Positions 288 through 60,865 of a DNA stretch of 64,000 nucleotides are shown here, one piece after another; position 1 is the first letter of the stretch; every line of letters starts with the position of its first letter. This DNA comes from Candidatus Woesebacteria bacterium GW2011_GWB1_39_10 (GTDB lineage: Bacteria; Patescibacteriota; Microgenomatia; UBA8517): NCBI GenBank assembly GCA_000993205.1, contig LBVU01000001.1, positions 8,155 through 72,154 on the forward strand. The letters run 5' to 3'. The notes under the pieces were generated by a model. That model did not search any database and was not told where the DNA came from. It saw only the letters and a program-made list of their open reading frames with translations. A program made the position numbers and the translations under genes.

Positions 288-1237
288 TGCAAACATTTCG
301 AACGCACGGGCTCCTTCCTTCTGAGGCATTGAAAAAGACGGTTGTCGTTTTAGGATTAGGAAGTGTGGGAGCAAGTTTTGTGGCTGACATACCTTACGAA
401 TTCGGTATGTTGGTCTTGGTTGACCCAGGTAAGTTAAAGGTCGAGAATGTCGAGAGACATCCCCTTGGAAAGTCTCATCTGGGTTGGAATAAAGCAGATG
501 CGGCCAAAGACTTTCTTGTCAAAGAAAAGGGAGTGCCTGCCGGACGTATTAAGGCGTTTTCCCAGACTGACAAGGAAGTATTGCCACTTTTTACCAATGC
601 CGATCTTGTGGTTTGTGCGATCGATGATAAGCCCTCTTGTCGTCGCGTAAATGACTGGTGTTTTGAGCATAGCACACCCAAGCACAATATTCCTGCTATT
701 TACGGAGGCGTATATCCACTGGGTTTGGGTGGGGAGGTTATCGCCATTCCAACTCCGAGGGAAGTTTGCTATCGTTGCGCTGAACGCCAGAGAGCAACCA
801 AAGTTCTCCCTCCGGCACATGCTGGGAATTATGGATTAAACCCCGAACTTCTTGGCAGCGCCGATAGTCCAAAAGCAATCCCGGCTCTTAAAGCGAGTAT
901 TACGGCGATTGTTTCCGAAATGGTGCCTTTGGCCTGGAGAATGCTTTTTCCTGGTGACGATCCAGTTACTCCTCAGATAAGATTTCGTGCGCTTGAGGGG
1001 TGGATCGAAGTTGCAAGGATACCACGGGGTTCTACTGAACTCGAAATTGAAGTCAGAGAAATCGGTATACACAAAAAGTTGCTTTTGGCCGAAAATAACG
1101 CTAAAATAACCCCTGTTGATCCGGAAGGATACCACGGATACCTTATCCGCAGGCAGCCTTGGCCGAAGTTAGTTGTTCAATGGTCGCGATGTCCGTCACC
1201 ACATGGTGGACAGAACGTCCAATTTTCAGATCTTTAA
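287..1237 (+). CDS. E1-like adenylating enzyme, ThiF/MoeB/HesA family
   Basis: Rossmann motif VVVLGLGSVGASF near the N-terminus. An AIDDKPSCRRVNDWC segment resembles the MoeB Mg/ATP site. A CYRC (CxxC) motif is present. Length of 316 aa fits stand-alone bacterial E1-like proteins. Confidence 0.7.
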   Translation: MQTFRTHGLLPSEALKKTVVVLGLGSVGASFVADIPYEFGMLVLVDPGKLKVENVERHPLGKSHLGWNKADAAKDFLVKEKGVPAGRIKAFSQTDKEVLPLFTNADLVVCAIDDKPSCRRVNDWCFEHSTPKHNIPAIYGGVYPLGLGGEVIAIPTPREVCYRCAERQRATKVLPPAHAGNYGLNPELLGSADSPKAIPALKASITAIVSEMVPLAWRMLFPGDDPVTPQIRFRALEGWIEVARIPRGSTELEIEVREIGIHKKLLLAENNAKITPVDPEGYHGYLIRRQPWPKLVVQWSRCPSPHGGQNVQFSDL

Positions 1238-1249
1238 AAGGAGATTGTT

Positions 1250-1576
1250 ATGACCGCCGTTTTGAATAATCGTATGCCCGAAAGTGTCAAGCTGGTTGAA
1301 GATGCCAAGGCGACCTATGAAGCCCTGGCCGCGATGGTCCTTGATGACAGCCATCCTGTCGTCGTTTTGCCAGCCGATGCCAAAGAGCTTCCAGGCGTTG
1401 AACTTCTGGTGAGCCTTGGTGGAGCGACTTTCGTTCCCGAAACCCGCGAGGTGACCCTCCTGGTCGAGGCGCCCGTCGCCCCCGAACAAAAACCGCCTGC
1501 AGGTGTCAAAGAAGCTGCCGCAGCGCAGTCTTCGTTCGCTGGTCAGGGACGCCGCGAAGAAGAACGCCGCGAGTAA
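1250..1576 (+). CDS. small acidic hypothetical protein (108 aa), GC-rich
   Basis: Strong SD (AAGGAG) 8 nt upstream of the ATG. Contains an internal LSLGG at residues about 55-59, followed by an Ala/Pro/Glu-rich tail. No recognisable family. Confidence 0.4.
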   Translation: MTAVLNNRMPESVKLVEDAKATYEALAAMVLDDSHPVVVLPADAKELPGVELLVSLGGATFVPETREVTLLVEAPVAPEQKPPAGVKEAAAAQSSFAGQGRREEERRE

Positions 1577-1806
1577 TTCGCCGGCACGATCTAGAATGAT
1601 CCAGTTTAAACTGGAGTGAGTGCATATACTGCAGTTTTCTAATCCCTCCTTGGGAAAAGAGAACTGCAGTATTTTTTTGGCCAAAACACTTGACCCATAG
1701 TTGATTTTTCTTCTTTTATCCTATAAACTCCCTAAGTTACTAAAGTTGTGATTTTCGTCACAATTGCTCTTTGTCAATTCAAACGTTTACCCAAAAGGAG
1801 TAATAA

Positions 1807-2772
1807 ATGGCTAAAAGTGATAGTAAACCTGCAGGTAAGGCCGACGCCTCATCGCCAAGGGATTCAGCTCCCGGTTCAGATCCTGTCAAGACCGTTTCCC
1901 AGGTCCCCGCGGTTCCTGCCGCACCTCCCGCGCCTGAAGTCATGAATGCCGCAGATCTGGTTGAACGCATTCTCGGTGATATGCTGTCCCTGCGACCTGT
2001 GAGGCCGCTCTTAAGTCGCGTTGCTGCGCTGCTTTCCTATAAGCAGATGGGTGTACCTGTGGAAGAGGCTCTTGCCGAACTGGATTTGGCAGATATCTCG
2101 CTGAGGACCATCACTCCTGGGATCGGTGCGATGATCAAGGCCGCCGATGAAGCTGACCTGGCTTTAGTGCGGGAATTCAATGAAAAAGCTGGCGAGGGTC
2201 GCTTGGTGAAAGTTGATGATATGGATCCTGGTCCCGCCAAAGAAGCAGAGCTAAAAGAGCATGCTGATAATCGCCAAAAGGCGGCAGCGCTTTTAGGTCG
2301 AGCGCAACCTCTTTTGACCGCAATTTTTGCGGTGGAAGATAAAGGTGGGGTAGCTGGCTGGTTCCGTAAGGCTGTGGACAAAGTTGACGAACTCACCTTG
2401 GTTAAACCTGGGGAAAGCCCCGCTGAATTTCCCGGGTGGCAGACTGCTCCCAAACTCAATGAGAGCATTCCTGCTGTGAAAGCCCTCCTGAGCGAGCTGA
2501 AGTTGATCGAGAGTACCTACGCCCGCGTTCGGGATCCCAGAAAGGCTCTCGCACAACTCGCCAACCTGAACATCAAGTTCACGGCTGAACGGGTTCGTTT
2601 CGTTCTCGATTCCTGTGTGGAATTGGCCAATGCTCAGGTTGCCCAGTCGGCGAAGGCGGAAGGAGTTGCTGAAGCCGATACTGCCGCTTTTGTGGCCAAA
2701 GCACAAAAGAATGACTCCGTTCGCGAGATCGCTCAAAGCGCTCAGGATTACCTGGATTCCGCCAAGAAGTAG
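1807..2772 (+). CDS. hypothetical protein with a disordered Pro/Ala-rich N-terminus and a helical C-terminus
   Basis: Long ORF with an RBS (AAAAGGAG) upstream. GC is about 58%, far above the window average. No recognisable motifs. Confidence 0.5.
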   Translation: MAKSDSKPAGKADASSPRDSAPGSDPVKTVSQVPAVPAAPPAPEVMNAADLVERILGDMLSLRPVRPLLSRVAALLSYKQMGVPVEEALAELDLADISLRTITPGIGAMIKAADEADLALVREFNEKAGEGRLVKVDDMDPGPAKEAELKEHADNRQKAAALLGRAQPLLTAIFAVEDKGGVAGWFRKAVDKVDELTLVKPGESPAEFPGWQTAPKLNESIPAVKALLSELKLIESTYARVRDPRKALAQLANLNIKFTAERVRFVLDSCVELANAQVAQSAKAEGVAEADTAAFVAKAQKNDSVREIAQSAQDYLDSAKK

Positions 2773-2803
2773 GGGAAAAAACGTTTGAAGTAAGAATTGC
2801 CGG

Positions 2804-3673
2804 ATGAGGCTTGTTTTTAGCCTTGTCCGGCAATATTTTTTTAATATTATGCAAATAGAACAAGAAATACATGATTCAGAACAAAAATTAGATTATGTTT
2901 TTGGAGTAATCCAAAAACCGGCCAGTCGTGGCAAAAACTTCATTATTGGATGGGACATAAGCGGAAATCCGGTAGTAAAATTGACTGTCAGGGAAGATGA
3001 AGCAATTACCAGGAAGGGTTATGAGACTCGAGGCAGAAATGCAGTGCTGGAGTTCCCTTTTAGCAGGGAAATTGCAGAATTTACGCCCAGAGCCCTTGAG
3101 TTTCTAGAGATGGCGAAGCCTCAGGACAATGCAGATCAAGGAAGGCAATTTACAGAAGATGTTGTTAACATTGCCTGTGCCAATGGGACTGGGTCTACAA
3201 GTTTCTTACAGGTAAAAGAAAGGGTTTTATTGGGTGCAATAATGGATACGCAGTTAACATGGGGGATAGGAAATCCGCCCAGGTCTTCATATAGTGTGGC
3301 CATTCCAGAAGAAGAAACAGGAACTTTGAACTTTTTGCTTTTTAGCCCTGGCAACGGCGCTTCTAACGAATTTGCATATAGAAGATTTTTACTTGGGGTG
3401 ATAAAAACTTTGGCCACAATTGATAGAAATCAGAATCCACCTGACCAAAAAGGATATGTGTATGTTGTAGAACAAGTAGTACAGAAACTTGAGAGTCTGG
3501 CTCAGGCTGAGAGATCGCAGGCTGGAGTTTTGGAAAAAATACAAATGGAAATGGGTGTTTTGGATCAAATTCGGGGTGTTGCGCTTCTTAACACACTTCC
3601 CGTAGATGGTTTACGAGTGGTTTTGAGGAACTTCAAAAATGTAGTAGACGAGAGTTTTGCTAACGGAAAGTAA
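2804..3673 (+). CDS. hypothetical protein (the true start is possibly the ATG near 2849)
   Basis: Long ORF followed by a hairpin terminator. No family recognised. Confidence 0.45.
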   Translation: MRLVFSLVRQYFFNIMQIEQEIHDSEQKLDYVFGVIQKPASRGKNFIIGWDISGNPVVKLTVREDEAITRKGYETRGRNAVLEFPFSREIAEFTPRALEFLEMAKPQDNADQGRQFTEDVVNIACANGTGSTSFLQVKERVLLGAIMDTQLTWGIGNPPRSSYSVAIPEEETGTLNFLLFSPGNGASNEFAYRRFLLGVIKTLATIDRNQNPPDQKGYVYVVEQVVQKLESLAQAERSQAGVLEKIQMEMGVLDQIRGVALLNTLPVDGLRVVLRNFKNVVDESFANGK

Positions 3674-3704
3674 TGCTTCTTCTTTTCGGATTTTGCCAAA
3701 AAAA

Positions 3705-3758
3705 GTGCCGGTACGGTTGTTGCTGACTGTGTGTCAACGTTAACCGCACCGGCATTTA
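3705..3758. terminator. bidirectional intrinsic terminator hairpin between convergent genes
   Basis: TGCCGGTACGGTT ... AACCGCACCGGCA forms a 13-bp stem with one mismatch. An A-run lies upstream and TTT downstream. Confidence 0.5.
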
Positions 3759-3787
3759 CTTACAAGAACCTATCTAGTCTTGCGCTC

Positions 3788-5626
3788 TTAGCGTAGTGAA
3801 CCGGGGTTAATCTTGACCTCGATTCGGACATAACGATCGGCCTGGTTAATGGCCGGATCGCAGGACAAAGTCCCGACCCGTGCGTACACAGAGATGAGCG
3901 GTGCGGGGATTCCTGCGCCTTGAATCAAGGCAAACTGGATGTTTGTAGCCCGCTGTAGAGCGAACTCTCGAACATATTCTTCACTATACTGGCACCACCC
4001 GGCTGCGCTACCCGTAATCAGGATAACGACGTTTTGTGTCTGCGCCATCAACTGCTGAAGCGATTTAGAACAGACAACGAGGTTGTCGTAGTCTGGTGTG
4101 TTTGGTCGGAGGAAATCCTCTCCAGCCTTGTAGCTGAGTTGGCTCACGCAGTTGAGCTCAAAAGCCGTGGGTAAGTTAACTAGCTGGGAGCCGTCCAACG
4201 CAGCAGAGGGCAAAACCTGGAAAGGTGTGTAACTGGTATTGGGCAGGGTCGTACCACTTCGAGGCCGAAGTTCCGGGTGCTGGGTGACGTATGTGGCCAA
4301 TTGCCCGAGATATTTAGTTTCACGCAAGTCGGCAACGTCATTAAGCGTTCCCAAAGGCACACCACCGTAGGCCCAAATAGCACCAAAGTCAACAAACCGT
4401 TTGTCCAGGATGTCAGTTTGGTTTGCCAGAAGTAGGTTGGAATCCAGGCTAGCCAGGCCATATGTATCAAGCCAAAGATGCATATCATTTTCGGCCGACT
4501 CTGGAAAGACATACGTCCAGTCGTTGGTATTGTATTCAATACCGTTGAAAGTAAATGTCCAACTGGCGATGGCTTCACCGGCTGCCTTCAGATTTTCCTG
4601 CTGAACCTTCAAACCTCCAAACCAATCAACCAGGAACCAGAAAACAGCATCAGGCTTTTCCGCGTTTGCCTTGTGGCTAACCACGATAATGTCTTTGAGG
4701 TTGCGGAGCCAGGTGCTGTTGACCAGAATTTGGCTTTGGGATGGGTCGCCTATTCCTTCGTCGATACAAGGAATCCAGCCGGCCACGGCGTCAGATTTGC
4801 CGTCAGCAAAGGCTTGGCATGCGTCTTCTACTGAAAAGTCGTGCCACATTCCACTGGTGTCGTACTCGCCTGTAAGCCAGGTGACGCTATTTGGAGACAT
4901 CCCTGCGGCACTCATAACAGAAAGCACTTGGAATTGACCGGCTGCGTTGGGGCTAACTGCGATAACGCAACCTTCCAGGTCATTGAACCGGGCGATGGGT
5001 TTGCCTGGACAACCAACTCGACCCACAAGGAGTGCTCGTGTTTTGTCGGCTCCGTCGGAAACACCTACATCAGTGATCCACTTACCCATCTGGGGGTTGA
5101 GCCTCAGTGTGTCACTGGTAGTCAAGATAATATCGCAAGTTCCATCCTGCATCCATCTTGCTTGGTCGCCCTCGTCATCACTTATCAAGACGTTTCCGTC
5201 AAGGTCGGTGAACCCCAGTGGGAGCACGTTCAAAATGTAGGGACGATTACTGTTGTCGGCGACAGCTGCCTGGAGAACCGAAAAATACGGTCCAAAGTAG
5301 AAAAGGCAAACCGTGATAGTTTGCTTTTCTGCGCCGGCAGGTGGAATCTGGGGAACGTTTTGTTGCTCACCATCATTACCTCCGGGTTGCGGCGCGGGCA
5401 CATAGGGCGTGTCGTTGGTTGGTGTCGTCGGTTCGGCGGGGAGGTTGTTATAGAGGTAAATACCTCCGGCGCTCACAATCAGACAAACAATGATCAGCAC
5501 ACTCAAACCTCCCCAGAATAGCCCGTTGCGTTGGCGACGGGGTGGGCGAGGGGTTTGGGGATTTCCCAAATCTCCAAGATCCAATGTCGTTGGTTGATTC
5601 AGTCCACGAAAACTTCGATTTGCCAT
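3788..5626 (-). CDS. membrane-anchored extracytoplasmic protein (N-terminal TM helix, large secreted domain)
   Basis: 612 aa. A hydrophobic segment GLSVLIIVCLIVSAGGIYL follows a basic N-terminus. Otherwise unknown; possibly a solute-binding-like domain. Confidence 0.55.
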   Translation of the reverse strand: MANRSFRGLNQPTTLDLGDLGNPQTPRPPRRQRNGLFWGGLSVLIIVCLIVSAGGIYLYNNLPAEPTTPTNDTPYVPAPQPGGNDGEQQNVPQIPPAGAEKQTITVCLFYFGPYFSVLQAAVADNSNRPYILNVLPLGFTDLDGNVLISDDEGDQARWMQDGTCDIILTTSDTLRLNPQMGKWITDVGVSDGADKTRALLVGRVGCPGKPIARFNDLEGCVIAVSPNAAGQFQVLSVMSAAGMSPNSVTWLTGEYDTSGMWHDFSVEDACQAFADGKSDAVAGWIPCIDEGIGDPSQSQILVNSTWLRNLKDIIVVSHKANAEKPDAVFWFLVDWFGGLKVQQENLKAAGEAIASWTFTFNGIEYNTNDWTYVFPESAENDMHLWLDTYGLASLDSNLLLANQTDILDKRFVDFGAIWAYGGVPLGTLNDVADLRETKYLGQLATYVTQHPELRPRSGTTLPNTSYTPFQVLPSAALDGSQLVNLPTAFELNCVSQLSYKAGEDFLRPNTPDYDNLVVCSKSLQQLMAQTQNVVILITGSAAGWCQYSEEYVREFALQRATNIQFALIQGAGIPAPLISVYARVGTLSCDPAINQADRYVRIEVKINPGSLR

Positions 5627-19831: not shown

Positions 19832-20710
19832 ATGCAAAAATTCTCTGTTCACGAACTTGAAGAAAAGGCCAATATAATACGCGAAGATATAATTAAAATG
19901 CTTGTTGAAGCGGGGAGTGGTCATTCGGCAGGTCCCCTTGGAATGGCTGATGTTTTTGCGGCGCTCTACTTTCATATATTAAATCACGATTCACACAATC
20001 CCGCATGGGAAGAGCGCGACAGATTGATGCTTTCTAATGGTCATATTTGTCCGGTCCGTTATGCCGCCATGGCTGAAGCAGGATATTTTCCGGTTAGTGA
20101 GCTTTTAACTTTGAGAAAATTAGGGTCCAGACTTCAAGGTCATCCCGAAAGATTAAAACTTCCCGGAGTTGAAACGACATCGGGTCCTTTGGGGAGTGGG
20201 CTGGCTCAGGCTGCAGGATATGCTTATGCGGCCAAAATGGACGGCCGTAAATTTAGAGTTTACTGCGTGACAAGCGATGGAGAACACCAGGAGGGGAACC
20301 ATTGGGAAGCGGTTATGTTTGCAGCAAAATATAATCTTTCTAATTTAACCGCAATAGTCGACAGAAATAATATTCAGATTGATGGTTATACAGAAGACAT
20401 TATGCCACTTGAACCAATGGTCGAGAAATATAAAGCTTATAACTGGAGTGTTATTGAAATTGACGGGCACAATATGCAGGAAATTATCGATGCCACGGGC
20501 AAGGCAAAGGCAATATTTGAAAATCCGACAGTTATTATTGCTCACACCATTCCCGGAAAAGGAGTCGACTTTATGGAAGGGGATTATAAATGGCATGGAA
20601 ACCCTCCGGGAACAAATATTCCCGGTGAGCCGTCGAAAGACGAACAGGCAAAAATAGCTTTGCGGGAATTAAGAACATTGGGAGGAAAGATAAGATCTGA
20701 ACATCAGTAA
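19832..20710 (+). CDS. tktA: transketolase, N-terminal subunit
   Basis: GSGHSAGPLGMADVFAALYFH thiamine-diphosphate-binding region. Split-gene organisation. Confidence 0.8.
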   Translation: MQKFSVHELEEKANIIREDIIKMLVEAGSGHSAGPLGMADVFAALYFHILNHDSHNPAWEERDRLMLSNGHICPVRYAAMAEAGYFPVSELLTLRKLGSRLQGHPERLKLPGVETTSGPLGSGLAQAAGYAYAAKMDGRKFRVYCVTSDGEHQEGNHWEAVMFAAKYNLSNLTAIVDRNNIQIDGYTEDIMPLEPMVEKYKAYNWSVIEIDGHNMQEIIDATGKAKAIFENPTVIIAHTIPGKGVDFMEGDYKWHGNPPGTNIPGEPSKDEQAKIALRELRTLGGKIRSEHQ

Positions 20711-20800
20711 TTGACCTAATTATTCTAATTGCTCTAATTTTTAAATTGGGACTTATTTAGGACAATTAGATTAATTAGAACTTAGAAATTGTAGAGAGAT
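20701..20800. repeat. AT-rich CTAATT / AATTGGGA / AATTAGA intergenic repeat, copy 1 (between the tkt halves)
   Basis: Shares AATTGGGAyTTATTTAG...AATTAGA...TAATTAGAA with 60768-60865. Confidence 0.6.
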
Positions 20801-33402: not shown

Positions 33403-33470
33403 CTCGATACTAAGATATTGAGTGGGCGTGACTTTTTTCCAGGATCCTAGTATCATAGTATCATAGTATC
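33390..33470. repeat. GATACTA-type tandem repeats plus a (TAGTATCA)x3 octamer array
   Basis: agatactaagtgactcgatactaag ... tagtatcatagtatcatagtatcc. Confidence 0.7.
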
Positions 33471-38861: not shown

Positions 38862-39431
38862 ATGTCAATTTACACAAAAACAGGAGATGAAGGAACTACA
38901 AAGGTTTTTGATAAAAAATCCGGTCAACTCGTTGGCATACGTAAAGATTCTTGTACGATCGCAGCGATTGGCGCCATTGACGAACTGAATTCTTTTTTGG
39001 GAATAATAAAAGCAGAGATATTAGGATATAAAGATACTAAGATATTAAGTGAGAAAAAAACTGCAATAAAAATAGAAGAAATACAGGGGAATCTTTTTAC
39101 GATAAATTCAATTCTTGCCGGGGCAAACCTGAGGTTTTCTAAAACAAAAACTAAAAAACTGGAAAAAGAGATTGATAAATGGGAGGGAGAGTTGCCCGTC
39201 CAAAAAAACTTCATTTTTTACGGGGGAACTCCAAGAGCTTCACAGCTCTTTTATGCGCGTGCCATCTGTCGCCGTGCTGAGCGTGCTCTGGTAGTACAGA
39301 GTACAGAGTACAAAGTACCTAGCGAGTTAATGATGTATATAAATCGCCTGTCTGATTATCTGTTTATGATGGCGAGAAGCGAAAACTTCAAAAATAAAGT
39401 TAAAGAAAATTTTTGGAAAAGTTCAAAATGA
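38862..39431 (+). CDS. pduO: ATP:cob(I)alamin adenosyltransferase, PduO-type, with an in-frame repeat insertion
   Basis: YTKTGDEGTT motif. The QSTEYKV segment is encoded by a heptamer array. Confidence 0.75.
   Translation: MSIYTKTGDEGTTKVFDKKSGQLVGIRKDSCTIAAIGAIDELNSFLGIIKAEILGYKDTKILSEKKTAIKIEEIQGNLFTINSILAGANLRFSKTKTKKLEKEIDKWEGELPVQKNFIFYGGTPRASQLFYARAICRRAERALVVQSTEYKVPSELMMYINRLSDYLFMMARSENFKNKVKENFWKSSK
39294..39318 (+). repeat. tandem heptamer array (AGTACAR)x3.5 inside pduO
   Basis: agtacag agtacag agtacaa agtacc. Confidence 0.8.
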
Positions 39432-40388: not shown

Positions 40389-40736
40389 ATGGCTGCCACC
40401 CCTGAAACATTAAGACCGGAAGTTCCTCAAGTTGTTGAGCGACAAGAGGAGTTTGTTGTTCCCGAAACTCTTTCGGGGAGTGGGATCAAGGTGGTGCAGA
40501 AAAATTTTAAAGCTCAGGTTAAAAACGATAAAGGAGTTCCCGTCATCCAAACTCCTCCGACCCAAGTAATTACTGTTCAACCTCCTGCAGATACAGTTGC
40601 TCTTACAGCCTGGTCCAAAGGGGACACAACATTGGGAGCGACATGGCTTGGGGTTTTTTGGCTGCGAGTGATCAAAAAGGCATTGCATTTTGGTTGGAAG
40701 GTACTCGGGCTACGCCCGACGGATACTAGTAACTAG
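40389..40736 (+). CDS. small hypothetical protein with a C-terminal hydrophobic helix, upstream of the coupling-protein-like ATPase
   Basis: 115 aa. The last codons plus stop (PTDTSN*) are formed by GATACTAG repeat DNA. Confidence 0.4.
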   Translation: MAATPETLRPEVPQVVERQEEFVVPETLSGSGIKVVQKNFKAQVKNDKGVPVIQTPPTQVITVQPPADTVALTAWSKGDTTLGATWLGVFWLRVIKKALHFGWKVLGLRPTDTSN

Positions 40737-40758
40737 ATACTAGATACTGGCGGCTAGG
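40722..40758. repeat. GATACTA heptamer tandem array (GATACTA GTAACTA GATACTA GATACTG)
   Basis: Read directly from the sequence. Confidence 0.75.
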
Positions 40759-43101: not shown

Positions 43102-43190
43102 CGGGGGAGACTAGAGCCTAGATACTTAGATACTGGCAACTTCACTACTTGAGTTTTTCCTTTTAATATCCTAGTATCGGGTATCTAATC
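43100..43190. repeat. TAGATACT repeats (CCTAGATACTTAGATACTGGC ... CCTAGTATCGGGTATC)
   Basis: Shares TAGATACT(T)AGATACTGGC with 40735-40755. Confidence 0.65.
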
Positions 43191-43192
43191 AT

Positions 43193-44056
43193 ATGAATAT
43201 CGGTGTTATTGGCTACGGTTTTGTTGGGCGGGCTACAGGAGAAGGTTTTGTGTCAAATCCAAAAAACAAGGTTTTTTGGTATGACAAATTCAAGGAATCT
43301 CCAAATACGCTGGAGGAGGTTGTAAAGAAGTCAGACTTCGTTTTTGTCTGTGTTCCAACCCCGATATTTGAAGATTACTCCGGAATGGACATGGGTATAG
43401 TTATTGGTGTGGTTGACCAAGTCGCGGAAATTTTGTCCTCCTCCGCTAAAGCTACGGAGGATAAAGTTTTAATTATCAAATCTACATCACTGCCTGGTAC
43501 AGCAAAGAAATTGGCCATCAAGTATCCAAAGATCAACTTTATTATGAATCCGGAGTTTCTTACTCAAAAAAATGCAAACCATGATTTTCTTAATCCTTCA
43601 CGAACCGTGATCGGGGCAGAATCAAAAGATGTTGCCTTAAAAGTAATAAAAATTTATAAAACGATCCTTTCAAAGAATCAGCCATACGTTGTTACTGACA
43701 CCACTAGCGCGGAAGTAATTAAGTATATGAGCAATTTGATGTTGGCCAGTAAAGTCCTTCTTGCCAATGAATTTTACGAATTGTCTAAAAAGGTCGGGGC
43801 AAATTATTTGGATGTTCAAAAAGCGGTCGAAAGTGATCCAAGAATTGGCACACACCTCGGGGTTCCCGGGCCGGATGGCGATATGGGATTCGGGGGAGCG
43901 TGTTTCCCCAAAGACATGGTTGGCATACTCGGATTGGCTAAAAAACTCAAACTGGATGTTTCCGCTCTCGAAGCCATTTGGAAGAAAAATCTCAAAGTTA
44001 GGAAACACAGAGATTGGGAAGAAATGCCACAGGCTTTTAAGAAAGATACTAAGTGA
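43193..44056 (+). CDS. UDP-glucose/GDP-mannose 6-dehydrogenase-family protein (short form lacking the C-terminal nucleotide-sugar-binding domain)
   Basis: N-terminal GYGFVGR Rossmann motif. Catalytic Cys motif GFGGACFPKD. Terminal codons KDTK* come from repeat DNA. Confidence 0.65.
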   Translation: MNIGVIGYGFVGRATGEGFVSNPKNKVFWYDKFKESPNTLEEVVKKSDFVFVCVPTPIFEDYSGMDMGIVIGVVDQVAEILSSSAKATEDKVLIIKSTSLPGTAKKLAIKYPKINFIMNPEFLTQKNANHDFLNPSRTVIGAESKDVALKVIKIYKTILSKNQPYVVTDTTSAEVIKYMSNLMLASKVLLANEFYELSKKVGANYLDVQKAVESDPRIGTHLGVPGPDGDMGFGGACFPKDMVGILGLAKKLKLDVSALEAIWKKNLKVRKHRDWEEMPQAFKKDTK

Positions 44057-44095
44057 TTAGATACTAAGATACTAAGTAGGGATACAAAGCAGCTT
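44040..44095. repeat. GATACTAAG(T) tandem repeats
   Basis: agatactaagtgattagatactaagatactaagtaggg. Homologous to 33397-33425. Confidence 0.7.
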
Positions 44096-44120
44096 CAGAA
44101 TGGTATAATAGCCTCATTAC

Positions 44121-44192
44121 AGGCCTGTCGTTCAACGGTTAGGACACTTGTCTTATAAACAGGTGACAATGGTTCGACTCCATTCAGGCCTA
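44121..44192 (+). tRNA. tRNA-Ile with anticodon UAU (CCA not encoded)
   Basis: Manual cloverleaf fold. Acceptor AGGCCTG/CAGGCCT with A73, close to the E. coli tRNA-Ile acceptor. D-stem GTTC/GGAC. Anticodon stem CTTGT/ACAGG with loop CTTATAA. T-arm AATGG-TTCGACT-CCATT. Confidence 0.65.
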
Positions 44193-44204
44193 CACAGAAT
44201 TAAA

Positions 44205-44240
44205 TTTGACCAATTTGGCTAATTAGTCTAACTTGGGTAT
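44205..44240. repeat. direct repeat, left copy (CCAATTTGGCTAATTAGTCTAACTTGGG), flanking the four-helix-bundle gene
   Basis: The right copy at 44765-44815 overlaps the last codons of the ORF. Confidence 0.6.
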
Positions 44241-44789
44241 ATGGGTGGCTACAAAAACCTTCTTGTTTACAGGCTATCTGTAACAATTTTTGATTTTACT
44301 GTTATTTTTTGTGATAAATATTTATTTGATTTGAAGTTCAAAAGAACCGTTGAGCAAATGGTTCAGGCCGGGAGAAGTGGCAAACAAAACATAGTCGAAG
44401 GCTCTAAGGAAATTTCTTCAGCCTCGGACATGATGCTTACCAGTGTTAGTAGGGCTTCTTACTCGGAACTTTCAGAAGACTATGAAGACTATTTAAGGCA
44501 ACGGCATTTACCAATTTGGGATAAAAATGATCCGAGAGTGTTAAAAATTAGAAGTTTTAAAGAAACAATTAGCAAGGAAACTAGTTTGTCCAATTTGTCA
44601 AAGTGGACCAATTTAGACTACAACAACTCTGAAAACTTTGCAAATTTAATGGTTTGTTTGTGTATGAAACAGGGCTATTTGTTAGATCAACTTATAAGGG
44701 CAAAAGAACAAAAATTCGTACAAGAGGGTGGATTTAGGGAAAACTTGTTTAAGAAGCGCAGGGAAAACAAATTTGGCAAATTGGACTAA
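44241..44789 (+). CDS. four-helix-bundle protein (23S rRNA intervening-sequence protein-like / TIGR02436-like)
   Basis: Core RTVEQMVQAGRSGKQNIVEGSKEISSASDMMLTSVSRASYSELSEDYEDYL resembles the four-helix-bundle family consensus (R.A.SI..NIAEG ... GS..EL). Confidence 0.5.
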   Translation: MGGYKNLLVYRLSVTIFDFTVIFCDKYLFDLKFKRTVEQMVQAGRSGKQNIVEGSKEISSASDMMLTSVSRASYSELSEDYEDYLRQRHLPIWDKNDPRVLKIRSFKETISKETSLSNLSKWTNLDYNNSENFANLMVCLCMKQGYLLDQLIRAKEQKFVQEGGFRENLFKKRRENKFGKLD

Positions 44790-44815
44790 TTAGTCTAATT
44801 GGGCAAATTAGAGTT
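44765..44815. repeat. direct repeat, right copy (CAAATTTGGCAAATTGGACTAATTAGTCTAATTGGG)
   Basis: Matches 44205-44240. Confidence 0.6.
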
Positions 44816-45671
44816 CTATAAGGGTTTGTTTCTTTCCAGGTTCGGTTATTTGGGCAAGCTCCAGATATCTTTCAGTAGTAGAAAGACGCTTGTGTCCTGA
44901 AACCTGAGAAAGAAGGACAATATCCACTCCGGCTTTAAGATTTTCCACCATAAAAGTTGTTCTTAAATCGTTTACAGAATAACTTGGAAGTTCGGCCCTT
45001 TGCATGTATCTGGAAATTGAGGCCCTGATGTTTCTTACTGCCAGTGGTTTACCGTTTTTGCTGATAAAAACATAAGGGGAATCGGATTTAGGCCTAATTT
45101 TCATATAAGAATCAAGAACCTCTTGGGCCGGTTTGTTCAAAGGAGCTGTTCTTTCCGGTTGGGTGGCATAAGATTCAATTTTAAGAGATCCGTCTGTTGA
45201 ACGTTCAATCTTGAGATTTGCAACCTCAGAGATTCTAAGGCCGGTTTGTAGGATAAGTTCGACTATGGCCGCAATTCTGACATCGTTTCTTACTACGTCC
45301 CTGAGGGCCCTGTACTCAAGCTGTGAGAGGAATTTGGGTAAGGCATTGTCAATCTTAGGGTGGGCAACAGAGGAACTTGGGTCAAAGCTGATTGCGTTTT
45401 CTGTAATCATCCATCTAAAAAATGTCTTAACGGCGTTTAGCTTGCGGCTAACGGACTTGGGTGTGTATTTGTCGGCCAAAAGCTGGTCACGGAATGAATC
45501 CAAATCCTCTGGTTTTACCTGATCGGGGGTGGCTCTTTCCCTTTTTAACAAATAGCCGGTAAGTTGTTCAAGATCGCTTCTATATGCAAGAATAGTCGCA
45601 GGAGAGCGCCCTTTAACTTTGAGGGACTCTATAAATTTGGGAAGCAGATTTTTGATTGTATCTTGTGTCAT
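44808..45671 (-). CDS. tyrosine site-specific recombinase, XerC/XerD-like
   Basis: N-terminal core-binding segment (ILAYRSDL). Catalytic R..H-x-x-R..Y segment (GLRISE, HKRLSTTERYL). Confidence 0.75.
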   Translation of the reverse strand: MTQDTIKNLLPKFIESLKVKGRSPATILAYRSDLEQLTGYLLKRERATPDQVKPEDLDSFRDQLLADKYTPKSVSRKLNAVKTFFRWMITENAISFDPSSSVAHPKIDNALPKFLSQLEYRALRDVVRNDVRIAAIVELILQTGLRISEVANLKIERSTDGSLKIESYATQPERTAPLNKPAQEVLDSYMKIRPKSDSPYVFISKNGKPLAVRNIRASISRYMQRAELPSYSVNDLRTTFMVENLKAGVDIVLLSQVSGHKRLSTTERYLELAQITEPGKKQTLIEL

Positions 45672-45740
45672 ACTATATGCTTAGAGGCTAATTATACCTC
45701 ATATTTTGTGAATGTCAACATTACAGGATGTAATTTACCT

Positions 45741-46139: not shown

Positions 46140-46502
46140 CCTCCCCAGATTCTTGGATGAATCCACGTTCAGACGAACCGTGTTTTTCTGTTTGTTGCGG
46201 GGTCAGGAGTTGCGCCTGACCTGAAAGATTATGAGCCTTTCGTGCACTGTACACTACCCCGCATGTATCTAACCTCGGAATTATAACATTTTGTTCGTGT
46301 AACTCCAAAACCAAAACCACGCTACCATAATTCGAGTTATAGTAGTATGAGGCAAGCTATTGGTCATTTGAGTGTGAAATGCTAAAATAGCCGTATGTCA
46401 GGGTAGCCCCGCCTGCATCCGCCAGCAACTGCGTAGCTGTGGGCGGAAGCATTGCGGGCAGGTCAGTGGTAGTAGCGGACGTTTCATGATACATATTTGG
46501 AG

Positions 46503-46540
46503 CCTGGGTAGCTCAGTTGGTTAGAGCGTGGCAATCATGA
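46503..46540 (+). other. orphan partial copy of the tRNA-Met 5' half (acceptor 5' strand + D-arm + anticodon stem 5' side)
   Basis: CTGGGTAGCTCAGTTGGTTAGAGCGTGGCAATCAT duplicates the start of the tRNA at 46550 with 2 mismatches. Confidence 0.6.
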
Positions 46541-46549
46541 AATAAATTT

Positions 46550-46626
46550 GACTGGGTAGCTCAGTTGGTTAGAGCACGGCAATCATAACGCCGGGGTCGA
46601 GAGTCCGAATCTCTCCCCAGTCACCA
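46550..46626 (+). tRNA. tRNA-Met (anticodon CAU), CCA encoded
   Basis: Manual fold. Acceptor GACTGGG/CCCAGTC. D-arm GCTC-AGTTGGTTA-GAGC. Anticodon loop ATCATAA. T-arm GAGAG-TCCGAAT-CTCTC. 3' end ACCA. One A-C mismatch at the base of the anticodon stem. Confidence 0.7.
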
Positions 46627-59702: not shown

Positions 59703-60767
59703 ATGTATTCCCCTAAGTTTACAATTTCAAATAAAGTTCTCAAAAACATTGGGTCTATTGAAGCGAGTAAGGAGGTAATTGAAAACGCCCCGCTTGTGCC
59801 TTCATTTGAAAAACAGTTTCAGTCAGACGCGATGATCCGGACCATCCATCACGGCACACACATTGAGGGGAATGATTTAACTCTTTATCAGACTAAAAGA
59901 ATTCTTGAAGGGGAAGAAGTTTACGCTCGGGCGCGTGACATCCAAGAGGTTGTTAACTATCGGAATGTAACACAACTTCTTGACGAACTGGCAGTCAAAA
60001 GGGGCGGGTATGACCCCGATATGCTTCGCGATATTCATAAATCGACGGTTGATAGAATTATTGTTCCAGAAAAAGTTGGAGTTTTTAGAACTACGGAAGT
60101 GGTAATTAAAGAAGAAGGTACAGGAAGAGTTATTTTTTCTCCGCCTCCGGCTAACGAAGTCCCATATCTTGTTGAAGATTTTTTTGAATGGCTAAATGAT
60201 TCTTCCGGAAAAGAGATCCATCCGATTCTCCGCGCCGGTATTGCTCACTATATTCTGGTTGCAATTCATCCTTTTGTGGAAGGGAACGGCAGAACCGTGC
60301 GCGCTTTTTCTACACTTATTCTTATGAGGGAAAGCTATAATATTAAAAAGTTTTTTTCACTTGAGGAACATTTTGATCAGGACCCCGCCGCTTATTATGA
60401 AGCAATTTCAATAGTTGATAGACAATCTTCAAACCTTGGAAACCGAGACGTTACTTTGTGGTTGGAATATTTTACGGAAGTTGTGGCGATAGAGCTTGCG
60501 AAAGTCAAAGAAAAAGTCAGGAAACTTTCGGTCGACTCGCGTTTGAAGGTTAAATTTGGTGAACAGATTTCTTTATCCGAGCGTCAGATGAGGCTTATTG
60601 AATATGTATCCGATCAGGGTAGCGGAGGAATGGGAGAGCTCAAAAAAGTTTTACCTATGGTTTCTGAGGACACAATCTTGAGGGAATTAAGAGACCTTTT
60701 GGAAAAAGGGATCTTGAAGAAAACAGGAAGCACGAAGGCCAGCAAGTATGTGATAGCGAGTAAGTAG
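59703..60767 (+). CDS. Fic-family protein (AMPylator-type Fic motif) with a C-terminal wHTH-like domain
   Basis: HPFVEGNGRTVRA matches HxFx(D/E)GNGRxxR. Confidence 0.75.
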   Translation: MYSPKFTISNKVLKNIGSIEASKEVIENAPLVPSFEKQFQSDAMIRTIHHGTHIEGNDLTLYQTKRILEGEEVYARARDIQEVVNYRNVTQLLDELAVKRGGYDPDMLRDIHKSTVDRIIVPEKVGVFRTTEVVIKEEGTGRVIFSPPPANEVPYLVEDFFEWLNDSSGKEIHPILRAGIAHYILVAIHPFVEGNGRTVRAFSTLILMRESYNIKKFFSLEEHFDQDPAAYYEAISIVDRQSSNLGNRDVTLWLEYFTEVVAIELAKVKEKVRKLSVDSRLKVKFGEQISLSERQMRLIEYVSDQGSGGMGELKKVLPMVSEDTILRELRDLLEKGILKKTGSTKASKYVIASK

Positions 60768-60865
60768 AATTAACCTAATTACTAATTAACCTAATTGACC
60801 TAAACAAGCTCCAATTGGGATTTATTTAGAAATTAGAATAATTAGAGTAATTAGAAATTTAAATA
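60768..60865. repeat. AT-rich CTAATT/AATTGGGA/AATTAGA intergenic repeat, copy 2
   Basis: Matches 20701-20800. Confidence 0.6.

Follow-up and report, generated by a model that had tools for sequence, protein, structure and literature searches.

Here, we describe a short segment of DNA between a tRNA gene and a recombinase gene in Candidatus Woesebacteria bacterium GW2011_GWB1_39_10, within a stretch of 64,000 nucleotides (nt) of contig LBVU01000001.1 that was analysed as a whole and is referred to below as the window. The segment, 44194–44807, consists of an open reading frame (ORF) for a four-helix-bundle protein of 182 amino acids (aa) and of arrays of a 9-nt unit that bracket it. Comparison with related loci makes it very probable that this segment is inserted DNA and, taken together with this, that the adjacent xer gene is a core chromosomal gene and no part of the cassette. 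We consider it probable, though well short of certain, that the insertion represents a small selfish cassette and belongs to the same class of element as the intervening sequences (IVSs) of 23S rRNA genes, namely a PF05635-family ORF in terminal repeats. That the arrays are a family-wide cis-feature of the four-helix-bundle gene can be said with high confidence; the broader idea that PF05635 proteins are sequence-specific binders of 9-nt-unit arrays, and so one half of a new selfish repeat/protein pair, is a tentative suggestion that may well not hold. The features of the locus are listed here in window coordinates, with their basis in brackets; arrays are given without a strand.

44101–44109, + strand: extended −10-like box TGgTATAAT, 11 nt 5′ of tRNA-Ile (read from the sequence; putative function)
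44121–44193, + strand: tRNA-Ile, anticodon UAU (TAT in DNA) (ARAGORN; Rfam RF00005, 63.4 bits)
44194–44807, + strand: the whole cassette, very probably inserted, array A + ORF + array B, 614 nt (comparison with empty sites in relatives)
44202–44240: array A, about four units of the nonamer NAATTNGNC, reaching the ATG (repeat search, Tandem Repeats Finder (TRF), pattern search, lag-9 scan)
44241–44789, + strand: four-helix-bundle gene, 182 aa with suffix domain (ORF; TIGR04258; AlphaFold (AF2) model; Foldseek)
44582–44617, + strand: internal in-frame nonamer array, part of the helix 3–4 insert (SLSNLSKWTNLD) (repeat copy, 69%; TRF period 9)
44765–44813: array B, about five nonamer units, palindromic about TAATTA (repeat search, pattern, lag-9 scan, TRF)
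44808–45671, − strand: Xer-like tyrosine recombinase, 287 aa, convergent to the four-helix-bundle gene (Pfam, NCBIfam, synteny)
45691–45718, − strand: xer promoter, TTGACA, 16-nt spacer, TATAAT (12/12 consensus match)

The tRNA-Ile gene, the 182-aa gene and the opposite-strand recombinase gene all lie where an initial annotation of this DNA had placed them, as judged by ARAGORN, Rfam, ORF calls and hidden Markov models (HMMs). An Rfam scan of the 64-kb window returns no rRNA match, and the cassette sits between a tRNA gene and xer. The TGgTATAAT box is probably the promoter of tRNA-Ile and, by read-through, of the cassette.

The evidence for an insertion comes from 80 metagenome loci in each of which a relative of the recombinase (62–86% identity) is encoded. 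On one side, divIC–xer is kept in all of the loci with enough sequence; on the other side of xer, 56 of the 80 reach a tRNA-Ile(UAU) gene, usually followed by sugar dehydrogenase (UGDH) and TraG-like genes. The four-helix-bundle gene is found in none of the 80. Only 1–47 nt, without an array, separate the tRNA from the xer stop codon in 23 of the 56 loci that reach it, and these are therefore regarded as empty sites, while the gap in the other 33 measures 72–1771 nt and contains unrelated small ORFs and tRNA fragments. The same interval in the window holds only the arrays and the ORF. Since empty sites retain no copy of the repeat, both arrays appear to belong to the inserted DNA, and the combination of a conserved xer with a variable gap marks xer as core, the gap as a hot spot and the variable DNA as exactly 44194–44807. 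The four-helix-bundle gene occupies the same site in four other assemblies (loci L001/L002, L005/L006 and L007), and the filled loci (the window, L001, L005 and L007) occupy three separate positions among empty loci in the Xer tree. These empty sites and scattered filled loci bear out the second of two options in the initial annotation, a housekeeping Xer with the four-helix-bundle gene alone as a cassette; the pattern that the annotation had named as refuting, an unbroken synteny of tRNA-Ile, four-helix-bundle gene and xer with no empty sites, is the opposite of what is seen. The expectation that relatives would lack the gene and keep a single copy of the repeat held for the gene and failed for the repeat.

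The recombinase itself has the domains of a Xer protein, SAM_1 (PF02899, 52 bits) and Phage_integrase (PF00589, 93.5 bits). Its best NCBIfam models are XerC (151 bits), XerD (142 bits) and XerA (150 bits), whose equivalog cut-offs (335, 330 and 220, respectively) it does not reach; these scores of about 150 bits compare with 48 bits for phage or integron integrase models. Its closest solved structures include XerA and XerD. R146, R237, H260 and Y269 are invariant in 75 aligned sequences of the Xer clade; the first catalytic His (HxxR) is Asn234 in all 75. The protein is like the XerC, XerD and XerA resolvases in domains, best HMMs, closest structures and core synteny, but unlike them in its sub-cut-off scores and in Asn234. 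Relatives also have the xer promoter; beside it is an invariant ATCCTGTAAT, which overlaps the ribosome-binding site of divIC. The window contains no xer paralogue.

The repeats bracketing the gene were initially described as direct repeats of about 30 nt. Repeats are indeed present there, but they are arrays of a 9-nt unit that are both direct and inverted, with a third copy within the ORF. Positions 44202–44236 and 44769–44803 are 83% identical over 35 nt and also 85% complementary over 33 nt; the repeats read both ways because they are runs of the unit NAATTNGNC, which is near-identical on its two strands. TRF reports a period of 9 at 44203–44236, 44585–44614 and 44768–44809, the second of which corresponds to the weaker third copy that lies in frame in the ORF and encodes SLSNLSKWTNLD in the insert between helices 3 and 4. 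Within the 64 kb, a degenerate pattern of 29 nt derived from the repeats matches at this locus alone, with 0 matches expected (100 shuffles). The two convergent genes have their stop codons within array B, which folds as a hairpin (−14.9 kcal/mol, z −4.7) and includes a perfect 12-bp palindrome, GACTAATTAGTC. The units are quasi-palindromic, of the form (GNC) N (AATT or TATA) N. Codon choice within the arrays is uniform: across eight genes of the window's unit 'dialect', in-array codons are AAT for Asn in 26 of 26 cases and TTR for Leu in 21 of 21, against 52 of 85 and 74 of 154 outside the array in the same genes (p = 4e-5 and 1e-6, respectively). Synonymous sites are therefore fixed inside the array, which argues for a constraint on nucleotides and not on amino acids.

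These arrays are found well beyond the window. The family was sampled as 80 loci from GTDB species genomes, at 39–73% identity, that belong to the candidate phyla radiation (CPR), Bacteroidota, Verrucomicrobiota, Desulfobacterota, Planctomycetota, Nitrospirota and other phyla. In most of them, 9-nt arrays are found at the start codon, into which they extend, at the stop codon, which they cover or follow, or at both, and homologues at 65–77% identity that reside in other contexts (beside or between tRNA-Ala genes, or at LysM-peptidase/rho) still carry arrays. In 72% of 81 loci, the period-9 self-similarity of the flanks lies above the 95th percentile of the locus itself, compared with 4–16% for the control periods 6–8 and 10–12. 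Lag-9 scans at overly strict thresholds missed known arrays. The unit differs by lineage: TATAAGNCC/TATAGGTCC is found in many, and GTCCCATNC, CTTAAGTAA, GGTCCGATC, CCCAANNNN and others also occur. The linker between helices 3 and 4 is encoded by each lineage's own flank unit, giving for example NRSYxTYRTY from AATAGGTCCTATAAGACC, SHASHESHRSH from GTCCCATGC and LSNLSNLGDL from CTTAAGTAAC, and the match between interior and flank units beats the control maximum in 48 of 78 loci. Arrays also accompany a plain family gene of 119 aa beside the same tRNA-Ile (L117 6119–6566 and L124 3697–4145), which is bracketed by inverted GTAATANNN arrays, and a CCTAGNNNN period-9 array directly follows the stop codon of the homologue in Prevotella nigrescens NZ_CP082843 (L181 4630–4720). 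The latter gene, from a cultured organism, is annotated as a 'four helix bundle suffix domain-containing protein'. The plain gene of L117 and L124 occupies the position of the dehydrogenase in other relatives, and no dehydrogenase match was found in either locus.

The 182-aa protein passes the TIGR04258 ('4helix_suffix') model with 47.3 bits at residues 130–176 (cut-off 40), and close homologues bear the name 'four helix bundle suffix' proteins in their source databases; a precomputed PF05635 match is present in some homologues of 65–75% identity. An AF2 monomer model (pLDDT 84.7, pTM 0.79) predicts helices 1–3, an insert of about 40 residues and a long fourth helix formed by the 'suffix' part. 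The top nine Foldseek matches of this model are all chains of 2GSC or 2RLD, pentameric proteins of the S23/IVS family (probability 0.91–1.0, target-normalised template-modelling (TM) score up to 0.83), and Avd chains of 8UB7 are also in the list. The model thus assigns to the protein the four-helix-bundle fold of Xcc0516 and BT_0352, of the PF05635/IVS-protein/Avd type. When solved structures were searched by sequence alone with the family profile, no relevant relative came up. The conserved motif of the PF05635 family is GxxRxxxSxxxNxxE (Zhang and Ye 2013, PMC3936711); the window protein has S46-x3-N50-x2-E53 followed by G54, with its Arg one residue before the Ser, not four. R45, S46, N50 and E53 are invariant in 29 homologues, and the alignment of these 29 sequences has 53 invariant columns in total. 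The search returned 3885 homologues; the suffix branch comprises 919 clusters at 50% identity (E ≤ 1e-10), and at least 544 GTDB species genomes give a match. PHROG and PADLOC yielded no match and viral contigs no relative, and a phage or defence affiliation was rejected. CPR homologues are often beside or between tRNA genes, and the family is known from cas loci, beside cas4 or cas6 (PMC3936711; PMC10910872), and from rRNA insertions of CPR bacteria, where it is still termed uncharacterised.

Arrays are also found without the ORF. Two such solo elements are present in the window.

20708–20790: solo ORF-less nonamer-array element between two transketolase subunit genes (array scans, TRF; hairpin z −2.15)
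60766–60862: second solo ORF-less nonamer-array element, after a Fic-domain gene (array scan, TRF; hairpin −19.3 kcal/mol, z −4.0)

Both carry the same unit as the cassette flanks, fold as long hairpins and share one plan, with a left arm of three to four copies of TAATTNNCC, the centre AATTGGGAYTTATTTAG and a right arm of three to four copies of AATTAGAN. By eye, this centre resembles the junction that removal of the ORF would leave between ...TTGGGTAT/ATG and TAA/TTAGTC.... Each of the two fills a whole intergenic gap. In the gap between the transketolase subunit genes, filled here by 20708–20790, relatives show either a spacer of 36 nt that lacks this array, an 84-nt array element with a different unit, or a 206-aa ORF. 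Further solo arrays occur near homologues in L008, L011, L016 and L021; those of L008 and L011 bracket tRNA genes and sit between LysM-peptidase and rho. In L021, a protein of 1487 aa just 5′ of the homologue (483–4946) has four in-frame nonamer arrays encoding SNESNWSNGSNL-like stretches; it has no Pfam match. A scan for NAATTNGNC finds 11 arrays outside the gene in the approximately 136 kb that carry it, versus 3 in 462 kb of related loci without it. As to the transketolase gap itself, the array element of L180 (1409–1492) has the unit CCAATANNN with an inverted ATTGG, the 206-aa ORF of L178/L179 (1377–1997) is of unknown family, and one transketolase subunit encoded in the window is 100% identical to one from Microgenomates bacterium GW2011_GWC1_39_7b.

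In the minimum free energy (MFE) fold of 44194–44830, arrays A and B form a stem of 32 bp that encloses the ORF, and this predicted duplex has an energy of −33.7 kcal/mol (z −6.2). A long RNA stem is likewise predicted from the arrays on either side of the plain gene in L117. A stem of the two arrays with an ORF between them is the architecture of a 23S rRNA IVS, and for this reason we place the cassette with IVS-type elements, outside rRNA. The IVS of Coxiella burnetii is 428 nt long, with a 28-bp terminal stem that is cut by RNase III and an S23p ORF in its loop, and its function is still unclear (PMC4990558). The ORFs of rRNA IVSs (Leptospira, Coxiella burnetii; PMC4990558) are homologous in fold to the window ORF, as the top matches to 2GSC and 2RLD indicate. 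The cassette and the rRNA IVSs are of similar design, at 614 nt versus 428–444 nt and with a terminal stem around the ORF of 32 bp (predicted) versus 28 bp in Coxiella; both lie in a stable-RNA transcription unit, a putative one in the case of the cassette, and both are sporadic among relatives. They differ in that the cassette is 3′ of a tRNA gene and not in an rRNA helix, while its homologues also occur in protein operons; in that its ORF has the insert of about 40 aa and the 'suffix' architecture (TIGR04258); and in that its termini are 9-nt-unit arrays, with a third array in the ORF and dispersed ORF-less copies. RNase III cleavage is reported for the Coxiella IVS and only predicted for the cassette.

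A possible sequence of events can be outlined, each step of which, taken separately, is plausible rather than probable. The cassette would be transcribed by read-through from the tRNA-Ile promoter: no promoter-like site for the four-helix-bundle ORF passed the scan and an extended −10 box precedes the tRNA, from which we infer the read-through. Arrays A and B would then pair in the transcript to form a duplex of about 32 bp around the ORF, and a double-stranded RNA (dsRNA)-specific RNase such as RNase III may cut this duplex, as in rRNA IVSs, and thereby separate the tRNA from the ORF RNA. The arrays may further act as cis-acting sites of the element, bound by its own Avd-like oligomeric protein with one unit per subunit, and this recognition could underlie the spread of both ORF-bearing and ORF-less copies. 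A period of 9 nt equals three codons, so that arrays could sit in coding sequence without breaking the frame. Avd is a pentameric protein that binds nucleic acids and reverse transcriptase. The four-helix-bundle protein is the only lineage-specific component that travels with the arrays and it has relatives that are pentameric nucleic-acid binders, which makes it the candidate array binder; recognition by the protein would explain why one unit is shared by flanks, interior and solo copies. If so, the protein would specify the 'dialect' of the unit, with arrays marking the ends and interior of the gene and also existing as ORF-less copies in gaps between genes, at the flanks of tRNA genes and in frame within coding sequence, and the repeat/protein pair would be spreading across phyla and into stable-RNA and defence operons such as cas.

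A number of results weigh against an IVS-type selfish cassette or against parts of this scheme. Significant complementarity between 5′ and 3′ flanks is found in only 15 of 77 family loci, and about a quarter of the family loci, such as L011, are without any flank array; a terminal stem is therefore not universal, and a universal 5′/3′ stem was rejected as a general model. When sense and antisense hairpin energies are compared in 79 loci, the sense strand is not favoured and z-scores are modest, so local RNA hairpins were dropped as a general explanation. With neither a universal stem nor a sense-strand bias, the lineage-specific periodic arrays need a further explanation. The orientation of arrays is mixed, and direct and inverted matches between interior and flank score alike, which also disposes of an orientation rule between the two; the lack of strand bias and the mixed orientation fit recognition of double-stranded DNA at least as well as a role in RNA. 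That the protein binds the arrays is suggested by sequence co-variation alone. A strict count of solo arrays of the cognate unit in 10-kb loci gives 3 versus 1.1 expected, which is not significant in what is an insensitive test. The 182-aa protein itself scores below the cut-offs of TIGR02436 (20 bits, cut-off 24) and PF05635 (19 bits, cut-off 33.8). On the Xer tree, gain of the four-helix-bundle gene is not separable from repeated loss. Finally, the cassette encodes no DNA-mobility enzyme, and no target duplication is visible.

The alternative that survives best, although we consider it unlikely, is that the gene encodes a resident, autoregulated nucleic-acid-binding protein, the arrays being operator-like sites of a small regulon, placed upstream of, within and downstream of the protein's own gene and at a few other loci, and the patchy distribution reflecting frequent deletion in a variable gap. 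Small oligomeric repressors such as MetJ and omega bind contiguous short repeats, and the units described here, quasi-palindromic and alike on both strands, have the look of operator repeats set end to end; array A extends as far as the start codon, and solo arrays lie directly upstream of genes. A resident regulator is harder to reconcile, however, with a gene that is found with its arrays in contexts as unrelated as tRNA-Ala pairs, LysM/rho and cas operons, with an intergenic site that carries an array of another unit or another ORF in relatives, and with in-frame arrays inside the unrelated 1487-aa protein. The scatter of filled sites on the Xer tree also argues against it. Autoregulation and a selfish cassette are not mutually exclusive.

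A second alternative takes the arrays to be Xer sites and the adjacent Xer to be the enzyme that moves the cargo of the gap, making the cassette a Xer-dependent module that exploits Xer or resembles the pdif modules of Acinetobacter plasmids. The cassette does abut the xer stop codon, array B has its perfect palindrome GACTAATTAGTC, and the xer–tRNA gap is hypervariable in relatives, with the tRNA flipped in 17 loci. Yet empty sites retain neither an array nor another palindromic site, and arrays travel with homologues that have no nearby xer, in many phyla and with different units. Other gap cargo is not flanked by such arrays: a dialect-free scan of the 462 kb yields just one further case besides the L117/L124 pair. 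A dif-like site of the 11-6-11 type was not found, and none was recognised adjoining xer; the block ATCCTGTAAT...TTGACA...TATAAT was considered as a dif site and rejected, as this conserved stretch comprises the ribosome-binding site of divIC and the promoter of xer. We therefore judge a Xer-dependent module very unlikely.

More improbable still is the first reading of the initial annotation, in which tRNA-Ile, repeats, gene and a Xer-like integrase together form a tRNA-targeting integrative mini-island. Halves of tRNA-Ile are present in L001, L005 and L007, and 3′ remnants of tRNAs in other gaps, which points to this tRNA as an integration target in the lineage. However, each of the 80 loci without the four-helix-bundle gene still encodes the recombinase, whose neighbours are conserved and whose gene has a promoter of its own, and the integrase gene is thus not in the variable segment; the recombinase also scores as a Xer and not as a phage or integron integrase. 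The window has no partial or duplicated copy of tRNA-Ile, and the flanking repeats are unrelated to the tRNA. Site-specific integration by the adjacent recombinase is therefore abandoned here, and the locus serves as a caution for annotation: a tRNA gene paired with a tyrosine recombinase gene is not always an integrative island.

The tRNA gene has further peculiarities in relatives. In L001 (3652–4000), L005 (3587–4000) and L007 (3232–4000), tRNA-Ile is preceded by one or two 5′ halves of tRNA-Ile, and one to three 3′ halves come after tRNA-Ile(UAU); the halves are broken in the anticodon loop (CTCTTATAA) and resemble scars left by integrase-type insertions that took place at this tRNA more than once. 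The 17 related loci in which tRNA-Ile is inverted relative to xer include L100, L105, L107, L109, L112, L113, L118–L120, L122, L123, L126 and L137–L139, and a conserved CGTATTATA motif is found in their spacer.

The least credible alternative is that the repeats are meaningless low-complexity or slippage products of an AT-rich genome and the gene an orphan remnant of a diversity-generating retroelement (DGR), an Avd without its reverse transcriptase: although the TRF output for the window contains numerous further short tandem arrays, for the most part of period 7–8, and Avd has the same fold (PMC10053308), the enrichment is specific to period 9 and to gene flanks in phyla of differing base composition, flank and interior co-vary, shuffled window sequence yields no arrays, and the protein is highly conserved, with its 53 invariant columns. 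The DGR origin was rejected on the neighbourhood, which consists of TraG-like, sugar dehydrogenase, tRNA, xer and divIC genes and contains no reverse transcriptase and no template/variable repeat pair.

An IVS-type selfish cassette also invites comparison with other repeat-associated genes. In REP/REPIN–RAYT (repetitive extragenic palindromic, REP) systems, a gene is flanked by short palindromic repeats that are also dispersed through the genome. The cassette is similar in that its gene is bracketed by a repeat that also occurs alone in gaps as hairpin doublets (two solo elements in the 64 kb) and whose sequence goes with the lineage of the gene it accompanies. Unlike RAYT, the associated protein is a predicted four-helix bundle and not an HUH (IS200/IS605-type, Y1) transposase, and unlike REP the repeats are periodic 9-nt arrays and not a single hairpin. 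Rickettsia palindromic elements and repeats that resemble miniature inverted-repeat transposable elements (MITEs) insert in frame into genes. Nonamer arrays are likewise in frame in coding sequence, in the four-helix-bundle gene and four times in the 1487-aa protein of L021, but they are much shorter than Rickettsia palindromic elements, are periodic and are tied to one protein family. The Avd of DGRs shares its fold with the 182-aa model (8UB7 chains), but no reverse transcriptase, template or variable repeat is near the cassette, and the cassette repeats differ by more than adenine-specific changes.

The ORF family is already known: it occurs in rRNA IVSs, in cas loci and in rRNA insertions of CPR bacteria, and it is related to Avd (PMC10053308). 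We found no description of the nonamer arrays, the internal array, the co-variation or the solo copies in the literature, where our coverage was incomplete and such absence of evidence is only that. The papers found still regard the very widespread four-helix-bundle IVS family as functionally uncharacterised. A cis-element that is conserved and travels with the gene is a first concrete handle on what these proteins recognise. If the cassette is indeed of the IVS type, such elements are not confined to rRNA genes, and the same design occurs beside tRNA genes in CPR bacteria.

Some observations concern neighbouring sequences. In Desulfobacterota, Nitrospirota and anammox genomes (L036, L042, L053, L066, L067, L070, L079, L082, L091 and L092), the ORF after the suffix gene has an N-terminus, MTYxEDDLIxLSALQHxxFCxRQCAL, that resembles those of Cas4 proteins. 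Its ATG is inside a nonamer array in several of these loci, which fits earlier reports from cas loci.

The window has a second dispersed repeat, GATACTAAG-like and of period 7–9, at 33406–33470, 39016–39049, 40722–40748, 43119–43178 and 44043–44076. Most of these five sites are in intergenic gaps around the TraG-like and dehydrogenase genes, and the last of them overlaps the dehydrogenase stop codon just 5′ of the tRNA promoter; the corresponding pattern has 7 matches versus 0.15 expected. On the far side of xer, a non-coding stretch of about 400 nt (46140–46550) lies between divIC and tRNA-Met. ARAGORN calls a minus-strand tRNA-Met within it, at 46194–46263, which Rfam does not support even at E ≤ 1, and L005 has a similar pair of tRNA calls.

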